Shown: in pieces, positions 2,692 through 10,295 of the stretch
How the letters are laid out: each line of letters opens with the position of its first letter
Position numbering within the stretch: position 1 is the stretch's first letter
Virus genome (UHGV): UHGV-1553673
DNA length: 40,191 nt
Direction: 5' to 3' (one strand)
From: a virus
The notes under the pieces: generated by a model
Databases searched by the model: none
What the model saw: the letters and a program-made list of their open reading frames with translations, nothing else
Told to the model about the DNA's origin: nothing
Program-made: the position numbers and the translations under genes

Positions 2692-3368
2692 TGATTGCCT
2701 CCTTTGCGAAGCTGGGCAGCAAAGTCAACTAACCACTCAGTCATTTCAACCTTCCCTACCAGGTCTGAACCAGGGTGCATACAGCAATCACTCTGCGCCG
2801 CTTTGAAATCCTTACACTCATATTCTTGGGCCACCAGATTTTTTGCAGCTTCTATAGCAGCATCCACCCCCTGCGCCCGGACTTCAGCCAGGAAAGCATC
2901 AGTGGTTGGCGTTTCAGGTATCTGTCTCCTCATCCGTTCTATTGCATGATTGAACCCGAAGTCTTCCGCGAGAGATACGTCATCCATATTGTCATTGTCA
3001 TCCTCAATATCCCGTGATTCTGGAATTGCAAACTTTATTCCCGCATTCTCCGCTGCCAGCGCCGCGCACTTGGCTTCAAGAGCTGCAACCACTTCCTGAT
3101 GGTCTTTGTACTTAACGTATGAGCCGGAGATGTCATCACCTTCGGTGTTTAGCCATGCGTCATTGCAATTCACTGCGTAGGTTCTGATGCTGATGCTCTC
3201 CCGCCCCTGACAGACGCCAGGCCAGTCAATAAAGTATCCGCAATGCCTACCCTCAGACGTGCGCGCAGGATAAATGCCGTTATGACCCGGCAAAATATAT
3301 GCTACCCATTCATCTTGCGTTGCCTGTTCCGCCGCCTCGCGCAGTTCTTGATAGTCAATCTTGCTCAC
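2688..3368 (-). CDS. Ea22-like family protein, paralog B
   Basis: N-terminus [13 protein letters not shown]; C-terminus [13 protein letters not shown]...LRKGGNQ shared with paralog C. Confidence 0.6.
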   Translation of the reverse strand: MSKIDYQELREAAEQATQDEWVAYILPGHNGIYPARTSEGRHCGYFIDWPGVCQGRESISIRTYAVNCNDAWLNTEGDDISGSYVKYKDHQEVVAALEAKCAALAAENAGIKFAIPESRDIEDDNDNMDDVSLAEDFGFNHAIERMRRQIPETPTTDAFLAEVRAQGVDAAIEAAKNLVAQEYECKDFKAAQSDCCMHPGSDLVGKVEMTEWLVDFAAQLRKGGNQ

Positions 3369-3865
3369 TGGTTGCCTCCTTTGCGAAGCTCAGCGGCGAA
3401 CAAACGTACACCAGACGCTTCACTGCGTAGAAACTTAACGGCATAATCAAAACCACCTCGTTCTGCGTCGTCTGCTCCGTTGTCGAGGTTATCTGCGTAC
3501 ATCTCTACCCCCTGCGCCAGCACTTCAGCCAGGAAGGCGTCGGTTGCTGTGGTGTTAAGTGAAAAGTCCTGTCGGCCTGATTTCAGATACGCAATGGCGA
3601 TCTTTGTTGCTGCGCATTCGACAGCGAATTTCTCTTTTTCAGCATCCAGCGCCGCGCACTTGGCCTCAAGGTTATCAATCGTGATTCCAGCAGAACGACA
3701 CTCCCGCAACGCCGTTTCTAGTTTTGATTCAAGTTCACCGAACTTACGCACCAGATATTCAGCGTTTGTTTCGTTAACCTTTAAATCTCGGGGGATGCAT
3801 TTACCTTTCAGAAAACCATCCATCTCAATTAGTGACATTTGTTTCATTTCTTCCCACTCCGCCAC
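3365..3865 (-). CDS. Ea22-like family protein, paralog C
   Basis: Shares the C-terminal block [13 protein letters not shown]...LRKGGNQ with paralog B. Confidence 0.55.
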
Positions 3866-4026
3866 ATTGCATTCAGATATTTGTTGTCATTAACAGAGCC
3901 GAAACTATTTCTCTTAAGCAATTCCTCTCTCGATGGCATTGGCTTTACGCGTTGGCGAATAATCATTTCTGCCGGAAGAATGCCGGGATTGTATGCAAGT
4001 CCTCTCATGGTAAATTTCTCAGTCAT
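3844..4026 (-). CDS. Hypothetical small early protein (60 aa)
   Basis: ATG at 4026 overlaps the stop of the upstream gene (ATGACTGA), indicating translational coupling. Confidence 0.45.
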
Positions 4027-4312
4027 TACTGATAGCGCCATAACGTGAGCGGTAATTACGCAGGCGCGGGTCAATTTCAGGGAAGTGGGTATATGTGGCT
4101 TTGCGGAATGGTCGGATTGATGTCTGGTAAATTCGCTCGCGTTCTTCTTTCTCTGCAAGCCATATACAGTGGCGAAATTCCTTTTCCTCTTTCGTTTCCT
4201 GCGGTAGCGACATTATCCGATCGTAGTTTTTCCTGAATTTATCCAGCACCTCCGATACGGAATTGCCGGAACAGCGGCGCGGGTCATCCGCACCATACAG
4301 AGGCGCTGGCAT
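4019..4312 (-). CDS. Hypothetical early protein (97 aa); possibly Abc-type anti-RecBCD by position
   Basis: Sits downstream of erf/ssb where P22 carries abc1/abc2; sequence not recognised with certainty. Confidence 0.45.
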
Positions 4313-4335: not shown

Positions 4336-4719
4336 TCAGAATGGGATGGAATCGTCGTATACAGGAGTGTTCTGCTGGTTACTACTTTGCTGCTGCGGGC
4401 TGTTTCCTGAAGTTGCAAATCCAATCTTTGCATTCAGTAATTCAAGAGTGATTGATTGACCATTTTGCCCCTGATAAACATCAACCCTGATGTTTTCTCC
4501 GGTAATTTCTACAATGCCACCTTCAACAAGAACACTACGGTAGTAATCCGCTTGCGCTCCCGGCTTGGCAAATACAACGGCGCTGTAGTTTGTCCATTCT
4601 TTCTTTTTTGTCTGGCGATCGTAATACTGAACGCCAGCACGGATATTGAATCCGATATTTTCCCCGGCCTGAAACTCTCTTGCGGGCTTGTTTAGTCTTA
4701 CAGTAATCGAATGTGCCAT
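4336..4719 (-). CDS. ssb: Single-stranded DNA-binding protein
   Basis: Acidic C-terminal tail ...YDDSIPF typical of SSB; start overlaps the erf stop (TAATG). Confidence 0.75.
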   Translation of the reverse strand: MAHSITVRLNKPAREFQAGENIGFNIRAGVQYYDRQTKKKEWTNYSAVVFAKPGAQADYYRSVLVEGGIVEITGENIRVDVYQGQNGQSITLELLNAKIGFATSGNSPQQQSSNQQNTPVYDDSIPF

Positions 4720-5834: not shown

Positions 5835-6809
5835 CTATTTGATGTCTTGCGTGTAGCCTGTACCGCAACAGCATGAGCATTGCTCTATTGGCGCGTGAAT
5901 GGTATCCATAAGCGTCGTAAGGAAGTTATCAATCATTTCCTTTAGCTCCCATTCGTTATTGGCTTTGAACCCTTTAATCGCCGTATAACCTTTGTAATTT
6001 TCTTGGTCATGTGTCATTTGGAAAATTTCAATTTCTTTCACCGTGTCAGTCTTAAAGTGCAACTTTGCTCTTTGCTTCTTGGTTCTGGCAAAAATATCCT
6101 GATATGAATATGTGTGAGGCTTAAGGAGCGGTATTATTTTTTTAACGGTAAAGCAAAATGCGTAATCACTTGTTATTCTAGCCAGTTTGTTGTCGATGTT
6201 ATCTTTTACGTGCTGGCGTACAATGTCATACATTTCTTTTGATGAAATTTCACAAGGGCTGTTAGCCCGCAAAGGCTCAGGAATTATGATGCAGTCAACA
6301 AGAGAGTGTTTTACGTTTATGTTTTTTACAACGTACCTCTCCTCCCGGAACCCAACATGCCTAATTGCAGAGTAATTAAATTCTGGTGCGTCACGAAAAT
6401 TTTCAACCTCACATACTAATGTGAATTCAGCGTCAACTGGAGAGGTGTAATCAGGTGCAGTATCGTATTTGTATTCATAAAGAGAGCCTCTGATATCCTC
6501 GTCCACTGCGTCACGCTCATTGTAACTAAGTGTCAAAGGGTATTTTTTACTCTCAAGTTCAGCATCTTTAAGCTCGTAGCGAACATTAATTCTTTCACCA
6601 GAGATAATTCTCTCAACCTTTTCAGGGTAATGTTCAATTTCAAACCAGTTTTTGTGAAAGCTGGCTTTGGGTTTAACTCCGTCAAATAGGAGATCAGCAA
6701 TTTTAGATTGATGGTACTGGTAGTGATAACCGTCCTTTGCTGTGCAATCAGTGATAAAACATTTACCAGCGTCGGTTTTAATAATGCTTATTTGCAATGC
6801 GTTACTCAT
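5835..6809 (-). CDS. Hypothetical 324-aa protein in an AT-rich moron; candidate accessory/defence gene
   Basis: GC visibly lower than the flanks; GGAGG RBS before the ATG at 6809; hairpins flank both ends; cysteine-rich C-terminus CSCCCGTG; no family recognised. Confidence 0.6.
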   Translation of the reverse strand: MSNALQISIIKTDAGKCFITDCTAKDGYHYQYHQSKIADLLFDGVKPKASFHKNWFEIEHYPEKVERIISGERINVRYELKDAELESKKYPLTLSYNERDAVDEDIRGSLYEYKYDTAPDYTSPVDAEFTLVCEVENFRDAPEFNYSAIRHVGFREERYVVKNINVKHSLVDCIIIPEPLRANSPCEISSKEMYDIVRQHVKDNIDNKLARITSDYAFCFTVKKIIPLLKPHTYSYQDIFARTKKQRAKLHFKTDTVKEIEIFQMTHDQENYKGYTAIKGFKANNEWELKEMIDNFLTTLMDTIHAPIEQCSCCCGTGYTQDIK

Positions 6810-6983
6810 ATCTCCTCCAGGCAAAAAGAATGCCCTCACACTGGAGGGCAAAGAAGATTTCCAATAATCAGAACAAGTCGGCTCCTGTTTAGTTACGAGC
6901 GACATTGCTCCGTGTATTCACTCGTTGGAATGAATACACAGTGCAGTGTTTATTCTGTTGTTTATGCCAAAAATAAAGGCCGA

Positions 6984-7607
6984 CTATGCGGCCTCGGAAG
7001 GAAGTCCAATCATCTTATTCAAATCTTCTACCCGTAAAGCAGGAAGTGCTGTACTTGCTTTGTCTGCTTCTTTTGGTAGCAATTCTTTGCTTTCAGGCCA
7101 AACTTCAATAAGTCGCTTAACTGTTGTGACTGAGTTCAAAGCAGCCCATACATTTGATTCGATATCCTTTTTCTTGGCTTCAAGTTTTTGTTGCAATGCG
7201 CAGATTTCATCAAACCTTTTTGTTATTTCGTGTTCTGCGTCAAACATGCATTTATCTTTGGTCGGAGTAGGGAGCAATATATCTTCGCCGTTGCCGTCTT
7301 TCCCATATGAATGCCATCCAACCCTTCTGCCAGATACAGTCAGATAAATTGAAGTAGAACGAACATCGTATGAGTAAAATGAACATCCCATCTTTTCAAG
7401 TTCTTCACTTATAGCTACCAACTTGGATGATAACTGATCCACTTCCTCAGTTTTCTTTTTACCGCCAAACGCAATAACTCTGGCGTCAAGTGCAAGCTGG
7501 TTCTTTAACTTTGTTACTTCTTCAAGTTCAGTGAAAACCCCAGACTTAATTAAAGCGTTACGAGCGATTTCCTCTTTCATTCTCGTAGTTAAGCGGATTG
7601 ATGACAT
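6984..7607 (-). CDS. Hypothetical 207-aa protein (AT-rich region)
   Basis: RBS gagagg before the ATG at 7607; central coiled-coil-like stretch; family uncertain. Confidence 0.5.
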   Translation of the reverse strand: MSSIRLTTRMKEEIARNALIKSGVFTELEEVTKLKNQLALDARVIAFGGKKKTEEVDQLSSKLVAISEELEKMGCSFYSYDVRSTSIYLTVSGRRVGWHSYGKDGNGEDILLPTPTKDKCMFDAEHEITKRFDEICALQQKLEAKKKDIESNVWAALNSVTTVKRLIEVWPESKELLPKEADKASTALPALRVEDLNKMIGLPSEAA

Positions 7608-7672
7608 ATTAATTCCTCTCAAATAAGTGCTTTGCTGCCAAAACAATGAACCATCCGGAAATTCCAGATAGT

Positions 7673-7897
7673 TCATAATTCACTCTTCAATACTTCCAAC
7701 TTACTAATCGCCGATAGATATCCGCGCTGATAGGGCATCATCATTCCTTCGAGCTTGCCACTTCTTAACTCCTCCCTGAGCAATTGTATTGCTTGATCAA
7801 TAACCTCTGCCTTAGCGTCCTTTATGGCTTGCTTGCGGGGCTTTGCTTTCTGCTTTGGCAGATTTCTCAAGCATGATGGAATGTATGTCTGATTCAT
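7673..7897 (-). CDS. Hypothetical small protein (74 aa)
   Basis: Lies directly downstream of the N-like gene on the same strand. Confidence 0.4.
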   Translation of the reverse strand: MNQTYIPSCLRNLPKQKAKPRKQAIKDAKAEVIDQAIQLLREELRSGKLEGMMMPYQRGYLSAISKLEVLKSEL

Positions 7898-7900
7898 CAC

Positions 7901-8173
7901 TTACCTGGCTGTCAGTTGTTTTGATTTCCGGTAGCCTGCCGAGTAAATGGCTACGTTTGGCAGGCAAATACTTCCACTGCATTCTTCTGCCTTCTTGCAG
8001 CGAAGGCTTCCGAGTGATGCTGCTTTGTCTGCTCTGACGCAACCAGAGAGATTTAGCGCAATTTTTCGCGCCAGTGCTTCATTACTGCGTCGCTCGGCAA
8101 TAAGTTCTGCTCTGCGAGCTTTGTAGCGGCTTTTTGCCGTACCTTTGGATTCTTTCCAGACAATGGTTACCAT
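7901..8173 (-). CDS. N-type transcription antiterminator (P22 gene 24-like)
   Basis: Arg-rich motif near the N-terminus (KSRYKARRAELIAERR); C-terminus ...AGYRKSKQLTAR resembles P22 gp24; AAGGAG RBS; nutL immediately upstream. Confidence 0.75.
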   Translation of the reverse strand: MVTIVWKESKGTAKSRYKARRAELIAERRSNEALARKIALNLSGCVRADKAASLGSLRCKKAEECSGSICLPNVAIYSAGYRKSKQLTAR

Positions 8174-8283
8174 GATGGTCTCCTTTAAGTGGCTTTGGCG
8201 CATGACGCGTCGAGGTGCTTATCTTCTCGATCGCTGTCTTGCAGCTGCAATTCGCGCCATCCCCAAAACCACTCAAGTTCTGG

Positions 8284-8323
8284 TCTCAACGGTTAGGTTG
8301 AGAGTCCGTCGATGTTAAAGAGC
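8284..8323 (-). promoter_or_regulatory. nutL: boxA GCTCTTTAACA plus boxB hairpin
   Basis: Minus-strand boxA at 8313-8323 and hairpin TCTCAAC-CTAACC-GTTGAGA at 8284-8303. Confidence 0.7.
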
Positions 8324-8369
8324 CTGCCAATCTGTTCCTTGTGGCGTCTCAGCGTCCTGCTGATGGAAA

Positions 8370-8440
8370 TGATAGTCACATATTGTGATTTAATGGTCAA
8401 TCACAAAATGTGTAAAATAAAGGTGTGACACGTTATGTGT
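8370..8440 (-). promoter_or_regulatory. OL operators and putative pL
   Basis: Repeated ATCACA..TGTG operator-like motifs resembling those at OR; minus-strand TTGACC then a 17-nt spacer. Confidence 0.55.
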
Positions 8441-8650: not shown

Positions 8651-8676
8651 ATAAAAAACCCGGCTCGGTGGCCGGA
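8651..8676 (-). terminator. Rho-independent terminator after the cI-linked operon
   Basis: Minus strand CCGGC-caccga-GCCGG followed by GTTTTTTAT. Confidence 0.6.
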
Positions 8677-8685
8677 TTTGCTAAA

Positions 8686-9237
8686 TTACTGACCTTTCTT
8701 AAGGTACAAGTTTATTAGGAAAAATATAGTTGGCATAGCAAGCGAGGCCAGGAGAACCCCGAGCATCCATACTTTTACATCTGCTATCTTGGTTTCCAAA
8801 GCGGAAAATTTAGCTTCAAAGTAGTCAACCGATGGTTTCTTAGATAATGAAGCATCAAAATCCAGGCTCTTCTGTAAAAGTACAGCGGTGTCTCTTTTGG
8901 CGTCAGTAGAATCAGAAGATATTTTCCGGGTATCCTCTTTAATTCCTGCCATGCTGCTCTTGATGTGCGCAACTTCAGCTTCAAGAACTGCTAATCGCTT
9001 ATCCATGTCGTCGCCTCCATCATCACTTGTTGTTTGAATGATCTCAGTATCATCCATCACAACCGATGTGACAATCCGTTTTTCTTTATCTGAAGCAGCA
9101 ACAGAACAAGCTTTCATCAAGAGCGTTGCTTGGCTTGATGCTACAGAAGAAAATTCCAGCCCTACTGTAGAGCCATTCTTATCAGAGTAAGCAATTACTA
9201 GCTTTCCCTCATCCAAAGATGATTGAGCTGCATTCAT
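8686..9237 (-). CDS. Hypothetical 183-aa protein with C-terminal transmembrane anchor; second gene of the cI-linked operon
   Basis: C-terminal hydrophobic helix VWMLGVLLASLAMPTIFFLINLYL; coiled-coil-like middle; GAGGA RBS; starts 6 nt after the upstream stop. Confidence 0.6.
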   Translation of the reverse strand: MNAAQSSLDEGKLVIAYSDKNGSTVGLEFSSVASSQATLLMKACSVAASDKEKRIVTSVVMDDTEIIQTTSDDGGDDMDKRLAVLEAEVAHIKSSMAGIKEDTRKISSDSTDAKRDTAVLLQKSLDFDASLSKKPSVDYFEAKFSALETKIADVKVWMLGVLLASLAMPTIFFLINLYLKKGQ

Positions 9238-9243
9238 CAGCTT

Positions 9244-9525
9244 TTATTCCTCGAACATGCTTTTCAAGGACTGATAGAAATCGAAGGCCTTCTGTTTACT
9301 TAAAGTCACGGACGCAACCTTAGTGCGCTGCATTCCTGCCACTGCGATTTCGCCATTCATATGGCCGATGACAGGGGTGCTATTGAGAAAAACGAAGTTA
9401 AAAACTTCGTAGCCATTGTTATCCGTTCCGATGGTTACAACCCCATCAGCATTAGTTTCAATATAATTTTTGGACTCCAGCACATCATTGATATGTGCTA
9501 AGGTAACTTCTTGTTTATCGCTCAC
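9244..9525 (-). CDS. Hypothetical 93-aa protein; first gene of the cI-linked operon
   Basis: GTG start with AGGAGA RBS 7 nt upstream; lower GC than the flanks. Confidence 0.55.
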   Translation of the reverse strand: MSDKQEVTLAHINDVLESKNYIETNADGVVTIGTDNNGYEVFNFVFLNSTPVIGHMNGEIAVAGMQRTKVASVTLSKQKAFDFYQSLKSMFEE

Positions 9526-9647: not shown

Positions 9648-10295
9648 TCAGCCAAACGTCTCTTCAGGCCACTGCGCCTTAACTACCTTGCCTATGATGC
9701 GGCAGCTATGGTCGCAATCCAGGGTTCTATATGCCGGGTTTAAAGGTACCAGGTAACTAACCCCTGCATCCTTCTCATACTTCTTGAACGTTGCCTCTGA
9801 ATCACCATTTGCAGAAGCCACGCAGAAATCCCCAGACTCTACCGGCTCAGCCGGATCAACGAGTATCAGCATGCCTTCCGGAAAACTTGGACGAACCCCC
9901 TGAGGCGCCGTCATTGAATGCCCCTTCACCTCAAGCCAGAAAGCTTTTTCGCTGGCTTTTGTGGTCGTTGGGACCCATGCCTTTGCATCGCTGGCTGTGT
10001 AGCTTCCCACCTCCGAAAATGGCCCGGCCTGCACTGAAGAAAATAACGGGTATTCATATTGGCGAAATACGGCGTCTGAATCCTCGCCAAACATTATTTT
10101 TGCCGGAGATACGCCGAGTGCCGCCCCAAGAACCAGCGCGTCATCCGCGCTAACCTTTCTTGTTCCTAACTCGTAGTTCCCCAGGCGTGAAGGCGCAGCC
10201 CAGCCGCAAAGCTTGGCCAATTGAGCCTGGCTAAGTCCTTTAGCTTCTCTAAGGGACTTTATCCTTTCCCCGATAATTTCATGCATCGTTTTCAT
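9648..10295 (-). CDS. cI: CI/C2-type prophage repressor (HTH + S24 LexA-like peptidase domain)
   Basis: N-terminal XRE HTH ([11 protein letters not shown]); C-terminal GHSM...KK autocleavage motifs; divergent from cro. Confidence 0.9.

Follow-up and report, generated by a model that had tools for sequence, protein, structure and literature searches.

We analyzed two adjacent genes of UHGV virus genome UHGV-1553673, a 40,191-nucleotide (nt) stretch of DNA hereafter called the window. A reading of the sequence alone, made without database searches (hereafter, the sequence-only reading), had placed two unassigned early genes for proteins of 207 and 74 amino acids (aa) between the N antiterminator gene and an AT-rich moron, and both open reading frames (ORFs) were present there, at 6984–7607 and 7673–7897, respectively, on the minus strand. 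The window represents a P22-like Escherichia coli phage or prophage (Lederbergvirus, IME10/HK620-type), with phages IME10, HZ41, and APC_JM3.2 as its top DNA matches, and the two genes belong to its leftward early (pL) operon. The 207-aa protein belongs to the Nmad5 family (PF18757, E = 5.2e-72; phrog_1965, E = 4e-84), and the 74-aa protein, here called p74, matches phrog_5305 (E = 5e-38). The moron downstream encodes Gad1, an anti-defence protein described below.

Two genes downstream of N

Both ORFs are real genes under selection and not chance ORFs: the family of the 207-aa protein comprises more than 2,000 clusters at 50% identity, p74 has 69 relatives, and the ratios of nonsynonymous to synonymous polymorphism (pN/pS) among close alleles were 0.36 and 0.27, respectively. 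As the sequence-only reading had claimed, their G+C contents (40.4% and 43.6% for the genes of the 207-aa protein and p74, respectively) are lower than that of the window (46.8%), and the 74-aa protein is basic (isoelectric point 9.7) and follows N directly, its ATG at 7897 beginning 4 nt past the N stop codon. All homologs of p74 start with MNQTY or MNSTY, in agreement with this start codon. The 207-aa gene starts at ATG 7607, preceded by the ribosome-binding site GAGAGG at 7615–7620. We rejected a 230-aa reading from ATG 7676, because the homologs all start with MSSxRLT, GAGAGG serves ATG 7607, the 23 extra codons are a 5′ remnant of a phrog_37429 gene, and ATG 7676 is buried in a hairpin of −20.3 kcal/mol.

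The match of the 207-aa protein to PF18757, “Nucleotide modification associated domain 5” (Nmad5), is full-length and single-domain (242.7 bits against a 27-bit cutoff; profile positions 1–206 of 206). The tentative link to nucleotide-modification-associated annotations in the sequence-only reading was therefore correct, and the RefSeq name agrees with it: an identical sequence is already public as “Nmad5 family putative nucleotide modification protein.” The names “Smchd1” and “Transposase,” which appear in some records, were unsupported by any evidence. Among 5,426 complete E. coli genomes, 211 carry the gene, and an exhaustive profile search yielded 2,281 representative clusters at 50% identity; among the best 150 of these, nearly all are stand-alone proteins of 190–225 aa. 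Relatives in sequenced phages are found in phages of Escherichia, Salmonella, Vibrio, Pseudomonas, Bordetella, Klebsiella, Edwardsiella, and Acinetobacter, as well as in a cyanophage. To our knowledge, a biochemical function has not been demonstrated for any family member. A Pfam search with the N- and C-terminal halves taken separately (E up to 10) returned Nmad5 alone, besides a sub-threshold match to YfjL_C (18.8 bits) that we dismissed. Neither the 207-aa protein nor p74 matched Ral, SieB, cIII, or Kil in Pfam or PHROG at E up to 1–10, and NCBIfam gave nothing meaningful for either. None of the PADLOC defence models matched Nmad5.

p74 matched no Pfam, NCBIfam, or PADLOC model, apart from a 13-bit noise match in the last. 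Single-sequence and profile searches together gave the 69 relatives, which are approximately 68–75 aa long, reach down to approximately 41% identity, are all without annotation, and all come from Enterobacterales (Escherichia, Enterobacter, Citrobacter, Leclercia, and Pantoea). The gene occurs in 149 of the 5,426 complete E. coli genomes. Its AlphaFold2 model (mean predicted local distance difference test [pLDDT] score 86) has an extended, basic N-terminal part (...NLPKQKAKPRKQ...) followed by a hairpin of two helices (residues 21–45 and 54–73). p74 lies directly after N in 66 of 76 IMG/VR loci, and a copy in a Pantoea dispersa prophage (57% identity) likewise begins 4 nt after N. The genes that follow it vary among the 76 loci and include the phrog_37429 gene, a gene for a 156-aa protein without annotation, Ral, DUF7446, and others, with Nmad5 in just 4. 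As the neighbors of each gene vary, p74 and Nmad5 are independent cassettes that merely chance to lie side by side here.

Like Ral of phage lambda, p74 sits among the first genes after N in the pL operon, but the two can co-occur, and p74 is thus not simply a Ral replacement. Relationships to Ral and to Nun were both rejected (hhalign probabilities of 0.1% and 0.05%, respectively); the p74 N-terminus is rich in Lys and Pro and is not an arginine-rich RNA-binding motif. The fact that p74 almost invariably adjoins N across a 4-nt gap, in E. coli as well as in Pantoea, together with its basic N-terminal tail, could mean that p74 is functionally tied to N, either modulating N stability or antitermination or acting as a Nun-like exclusion factor; in some relatives, Nun, located downstream of N, precedes Nmad5 in place of p74. 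We nevertheless regard such a tie as rather improbable: p74 lacks similarity to Nun and its tail is of a different composition, most N genes are without p74, and a conserved recombination junction coincides with the 3′ end of N and could by itself account for the two being neighbors. Moreover, a relative at 42% identity occurs without N, in a non-lambdoid early region after RdgC, so the link between p74 and N is not universal.

Conserved residues of Nmad5 and the Tmn escape site

Conservation within the Nmad5 family was computed over 114–140 relatives at approximately 30% identity. The positions conserved in at least 85% of them (R5, I14, A18, R43, G48, G49, G93, T162, L166, W170, P171, E172, E175, L176, P178, L188, P189, L196, N197, G201, L202, and P203) are concentrated in the last 45 residues. 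The window protein has all the near-invariant ones (R5, I14, A18, R43, G48, G93, T162, L166, W170, P171, E172, L176, P178, L196, N197, and G201). It also carries both family motifs, RLT..R..I..NA..KAG near the N-terminus and TTVKKLL..WPEA.ELLP-(approximately 9 residues)-LPA..DLN..IGLP at the C-terminus, the latter in the form TTVKRL..WPE..ELLP...LPA..DLN..IGLP. No His or Cys is among the positions conserved in at least 85%, and the only acidic residues are E172 and E175 of the WPE..EL motif; Nmad5 thus has no catalytic-looking set of residues.

The AlphaFold2 model of the window protein (pLDDT 86) is a helical bundle with a β-hairpin. Three long helices (residues 8–72) are followed by the β-hairpin region (86–100), a long helix (127–158), a small helical sub-domain (163–182), a low-confidence linker (183–192, pLDDT < 50), and a short helix (193–199). 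The long helices at 8–72 and 127–158 are consistent with the charged, coiled-coil-like middle that had been noticed from the sequence. A Foldseek comparison of this model with the PDB returned nothing with E below 0.27, profile searches of both the Nmad5 and the p74 families against PDB sequences, including solved anti-defence structures, gave no match, and a fold search of BFVD matched only other unnamed Nmad5 proteins. Without a match to a solved structure and without a catalytic motif, Nmad5 is probably non-enzymatic. Furthermore, a conserved stretch that is modeled at pLDDT < 50, such as residues 183–192, is what would be expected of a peptide that folds upon binding. From the model and the pattern of conservation, we infer that the C-terminal motif may serve as a protein-docking module on a helical scaffold.

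A full-text literature search returned one paper that bears on the function of Nmad5, a study of Dhillonviruses and the Tmn defence system (PMC11846954). In that study, Dhillonviruses escaped Tmn by a single substitution in Nmad5 (K216E in phage SM_A8 and K296E in SMS22), whereas deletion of nmad5 was viable, allowed no escape, and left Tmn sensitivity unchanged; the gene could not be cloned, apparently because of toxicity. As escape was obtained by a point mutant and not by deletion, its authors regarded the escape as a gain of function (PMC11846954). In our alignment to the family profile, K216 of the 254-aa SM_A8 protein, which is the second K in NTDKKLIKAWPE, falls on R165 of the window protein, in the sequence TTVK-R-LIEVWPE. 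The only Nmad5 residue known to change a phenotype therefore sits in the signature motif of the family.

The relatives in SM_A8 and SMS22, gp15 of Pseudomonas phage YuA, and gp23 of PhiJL001 share with the window protein the full-length match to the same hidden Markov model, the predicted fold (BFVD TM-score up to 0.77), and the motif WPE..ELLP...LN..IGLP, and the Tmn escape site is kept as a basic residue (R165 in the window). They differ in setting: the window gene stands alone in a lambdoid pL operon without nearby nucleotide-modification or polymerase genes, whereas the Dhillonvirus protein has a large insertion (254 aa) and is encoded in the head module.

Another early phage protein has been linked to the same defence. 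RIIB of phage T2 directly activates Tmn, single RIIB substitutions abolish Tmn defence, and a 2026 preprint calls RIIB a replisome component (PMC13001434). T2/T4 RIIB and Dhillonvirus Nmad5 are thus alike as early proteins in which single substitutions end Tmn defence, and a weak parallel may be drawn between them. They also differ, in that deletion of Nmad5 left Tmn sensitivity in place and direct activation of Tmn is on record for RIIB; the parallel is drawn without any claim of homology.

Genomic contexts and possible role of Nmad5

We first consider 80 IMG/VR loci whose Nmad5 copy is at least 95% identical to that of the window. In these loci, Nmad5 forms a cassette with conserved flanks, namely an upstream region containing the ribosome-binding site and a downstream junction containing a terminator. 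The gene immediately upstream was N in 47 loci, lambda Ral in 11, HK022 Nun in 6, the 74-aa gene in approximately 6, and others in the remainder. Downstream were Ea10, a TolA-like coiled-coil protein, P22 gp17 (PF17420), and several proteins without annotation, with Gad1 in the window alone. Ral, Nun, and P22 gp17 have in common with the two genes the operon, its cassette slots, and early expression from pL, and Ral or Nun stands directly upstream of Nmad5 in sister phages; Ral can also directly follow p74. Yet none of the three has sequence or profile similarity to Nmad5 or p74. The sequence-only reading had guessed at host-takeover or exclusion roles from position. In its favor, this stretch carries Ral, Nun, and gp17 in relatives and Gad1 in the window; against it, nothing marks either protein as an anti-restriction factor or an inhibitor of cell division, neither matches Ral, SieB, cIII, Kil, or defence models, and p74 is unlike Ral and Nun. 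By analogy with their neighbors, a host-takeover or counter-defence role for both genes is plausible but unproven.

A more specific version of this idea is that Nmad5 is a dedicated anti-defence protein that neutralizes one host immune system, and that the K-to-E substitutions of Dhillonviruses alter this activity. Its location in the hypervariable stretch between N and cIII alongside Ral, Nun, gp17, and Gad1, its self-contained cassette with conserved flanks, and the Dhillonvirus observations (a non-essential, apparently toxic gene in which a point mutation but not deletion gives escape; PMC11846954) would all fit. However, as deletion left Tmn sensitivity unchanged, the wild-type protein is not an anti-Tmn factor (PMC11846954). 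In addition, a family of 2,281 clusters that often lies in core replication modules is unlike sporadic anti-defence genes, and neither its fold nor its sequence matched a known anti-defence family. We consider this explanation unlikely.

More distant contexts were collected by scanning viral contigs with a degenerate DNA pattern for WPEA.EL[LI]P, which gave 92 loci, 88 of which encode Nmad5. These 88 fell into 48 non-redundant groups, in which neighbors were counted within three genes. The neighbors included a DUF2800 PD-(D/E)XK nuclease (9 of 48 contexts), an Enc34-type single-stranded DNA (ssDNA)-binding protein (8), DNA polymerase A (9), ThyX (5), AAA_24 (5), a PriCT primase (3), repressor-type helix-turn-helix/S24 proteins (4), and a 5-hydroxymethyl-deoxyuridine (5-hmdU) DNA kinase (1), and the order DUF2800 nuclease, ssDNA-binding protein, Nmad5, DNA polymerase A was recurrent. 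Because modification genes are rare and replication genes common near Nmad5, the name “nucleotide modification associated” fits only a minority of contexts. What the Nmad5 contexts have in common is early expression alongside genes for DNA replication, recombination, and nucleotide metabolism. Homology to replication proteins, which the sequence-only reading had named as contrary to its guess, was not found for either protein in the searches above, but distant Nmad5 genes are syntenic with replication genes, and this synteny favors a function in DNA metabolism no less than one in anti-restriction.

Participation of Nmad5 in the modification of phage DNA bases is what the Pfam name conveys. In phage YuA, Nmad5 (gp15) adjoins a deoxyuridine monophosphate (dUMP) hydroxymethyltransferase and other genes of the hydroxymethyl-dU hypermodification pathway, and the 5-hmdU DNA kinase in one of the 48 contexts can be read in the same way. 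The YuA modification genes themselves, however, lie inside the replication module. In the window, the annotated neighbors are N, Gad1, kil, an ERF-family recombinase, and anti-RecBCD, and no modification enzyme flanks Nmad5 there or in the 80 close lambdoid loci. As its fold is without precedent among enzymes and conserved catalytic residues are lacking, a part for Nmad5 in base modification appears very improbable.

Alternatively, Nmad5 may be a component of the replication or recombination machinery itself, such as an accessory factor of the ssDNA-binding protein or of the polymerase, or a recombination mediator, and not be directed at the host. The recurrent gene order with polymerase A, the AAA_24, primase, and ThyX contexts, and the presence of an ERF-family recombinase, a protein resembling single-stranded DNA-binding protein (SSB), and anti-RecBCD in the window operon all speak for such a function, as does the description of the other known Tmn trigger, RIIB, as replisome-associated (PMC13001434). 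On the other hand, the lambdoid phages and Dhillonviruses that carry the gene replicate and recombine by unrelated systems, a Dhillonvirus can do without it (PMC11846954), and it is absent from most lambdoid phages, as its presence in 211 of 5,426 E. coli genomes also illustrates. A core component of this kind is conceivable but doubtful.

We favor a reading, to which we give a probability of roughly 0.4, in which Nmad5 is a non-enzymatic early adaptor that docks a DNA-metabolism partner and p74 is an immediate-early accessory factor encoded after N. Nmad5 would be made early in infection as a helical scaffold or adaptor, and its C-terminal module (TTVK-R165-L..WPE..ELLP, a flexible linker, and LPA..DLN..IGLP) would dock onto a putative partner from the replication, recombination, or nucleotide-metabolism machinery of either phage or host. 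Nmad5 would thus play an accessory, dispensable part in host takeover, and Tmn-type immunity would be able to sense it. p74, in the first cassette slot after N and probably co-translated with N, would by its position and timing most likely be an immediate-early accessory protein for host modulation or counter-defence. A bolder form, in which Nmad5 represents a widespread class of early adaptors whose invariant C-terminal peptide clamps a conserved proteobacterial DNA-metabolism protein, a conserved basic patch at R165 is read as a sign of infection by Tmn-type membrane nucleoside triphosphatases, and p74 is an immediate-early counter-defence factor co-translated with N, seems to us quite unlikely.

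Several observations weigh against the adaptor reading. Synteny with replication modules was seen in only approximately 18 of the 48 contexts, among loci that came from a motif-based DNA scan, and in the lambdoid phages variable cassettes, cIII, and kil lie between Nmad5 and the recombination genes. In some phages, as the YuA context shows, Nmad5 does have a connection to base modification. In Dhillonvirus SM_A8 (3178–4297), Nmad5 and a 104-aa gene form a two-gene cassette on the strand opposite to the head-morphogenesis genes. Enzymatic activity may also be present in a protein without catalytic-looking residues. For p74, support is limited to position, charge, and fold, and the relative next to RdgC departs from the N-linked arrangement. 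The SM_A8 cassette looks moron-like, unlike the replication-module context seen elsewhere, and its 104-aa gene was rejected as a relative of p74 (BLASTP, E = 2.5).

The pL operon and its variable cassettes

A cI-like repressor gene lies at 9648–10295 (minus strand, as are all features below). It is followed by two ORFs in the position of lambda rexAB (9244–9525 and 8686–9237), which are ended by a strong terminator at 8656–8679. These ORFs, located between the repressor gene and pL/N, encode proteins of 93 aa (phrog_12039) and 183 aa (phrog_12602), the latter with a coiled-coil look and a hydrophobic C-terminal helix, and a pair of comparable size (99 and 190 aa) occupies the same slot in a Pantoea prophage, with weak similarity (E = 5e-4 for the small member). 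We regard the two window genes as candidate exclusion or defence genes of a prophage. A pL-like promoter (TTGACC-17 nt-GACTAT) with palindromic, operator-like sequences around it was located near 8366–8400. Downstream, at approximately 8275–8320, a boxA-like GCTCTTTAA precedes a 7-bp hairpin, UCUCAAC-CUAACC-GUUGAGA, which we take for boxB and which presumably resembles the phage 21 type. The N gene (PF25694 N_peptide, E = 1e-16; phrog_271) spans 7901–8203 (100 aa) when read from ATG 8203, but it probably starts at ATG 8173 (90 aa), which is preceded by the ribosome-binding site AAGGAG; the closest E. coli genome also annotates a 90-aa N.

A scan of the coding strand from N to the end of Nmad5 gave no sigma-70-like promoter; transcription of both genes is therefore expected to come from pL. 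At 7646–7676, overlapping the p74 stop codon, the terminator scan identified a 14-bp RNA hairpin (−20.3 kcal/mol, z = −5.0) followed by UUGUUUUGG, which may be a tL1-like terminator or a processing site. If it terminates, p74 could be the sole gene co-transcribed with N before antitermination, and Nmad5 could be N-dependent. The 65-nt spacer between p74 and Nmad5 (within 7608–7676) is the 5′ remnant of a displaced gene, matching the start of phrog_37429 and of cluster c46; in sister phages, a complete 105-aa phrog_37429 gene (MNYLEFPDGSLFWQQ...) stands in the same place. The spacer marks a recombination junction. On the other side of Nmad5, the terminator scan and folding gave a terminator-like hairpin (GAGGCCG...CGGCCTT, then TATTTTT) at 6976–6995, which overlaps the last Nmad5 codons and is kept with the gene in related IMG/VR loci, and a second one at 6831–6850; together, they look like a terminator cluster. 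Both are housed in a conserved non-coding junction downstream of Nmad5 (6825–6983). When translated, this junction mimics a shared N-terminal extension (MSLVTKQEPT..., MSLVTKQEPTCSDYWKSSLPSSVRA...) on the unrelated genes that follow it in many phages, which is an annotation trap; only this “leader” of 27–37 codons is common to the other loci.

The moron immediately downstream (5835–6809) encodes a 324-aa Gad1, or Gabija anti-defence 1 (PF25705, E = 5.7e-67; PDB 8u7i, E = 2.6e-43, with the 8u7i_I match covering residues 14–319). Gad1 is an inhibitor of the Gabija defence and targets GajAB. Its start is likely M33 of a 356-aa ORF, and RefSeq annotates 324 aa. The gene resembles Nmad5 and p74 in its low G+C content (39.7%) and in being a cassette of the same variable stretch; it differs in having a known target, and neither of the two is homologous to it. 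It was present in none of the 80 sister loci. Its occurrence together with the two genes is rare: of the 5,426 complete E. coli genomes, only one shares the greater part of the N–Nmad5–Gad1 stretch, and the annotation of that genome lists no 74-aa gene. Farther downstream, the annotation of the closest genome gives small kil/cIII-like ORFs, an ERF-family recombinase, an SSB-like protein, and anti-RecBCD. A 127-aa protein encoded downstream of the recombinase (4336–4719) ends in ...DDSIPF. Acidic tips such as DDSIPF are typical of bacterial SSB C-termini, and this protein resembles a short phage version of SSB, which could compete for the host proteins that interact with SSB.

Across E. coli lambdoid phages, the stretch from N to cIII is a hypervariable array of cassettes that includes Ral, Nun, P22 gp17 (PF17420), DUF7446, and Ea10, together with a TolA-like coiled-coil protein of 320–350 aa, a 149-aa protein that looks membrane-spanning, and families of 80–170 aa without annotation.

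Membership of the 207-aa protein in Nmad5 was already known from RefSeq, as was the small protein as a hypothetical one; new here are the reassessed family context, in which replication modules are far commoner than modification genes, the docking-type C-terminal motif, and the mapping of the Tmn escape residue. Nmad5 is among the larger phage protein families without an assigned function, occurring in temperate and virulent phages of many Gram-negative hosts, and its probable non-enzymatic nature, its travel with replication and recombination modules, and a phenotype-changing mutation in its most conserved motif together provide testable hypotheses, for which the lambdoid Nmad5 is a convenient and genetically tractable entry point. 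These results also confirm the stretch from N to cIII as a site where counter-defence cassettes accumulate, and p74 and its neighbors are reasonable candidates for screening.

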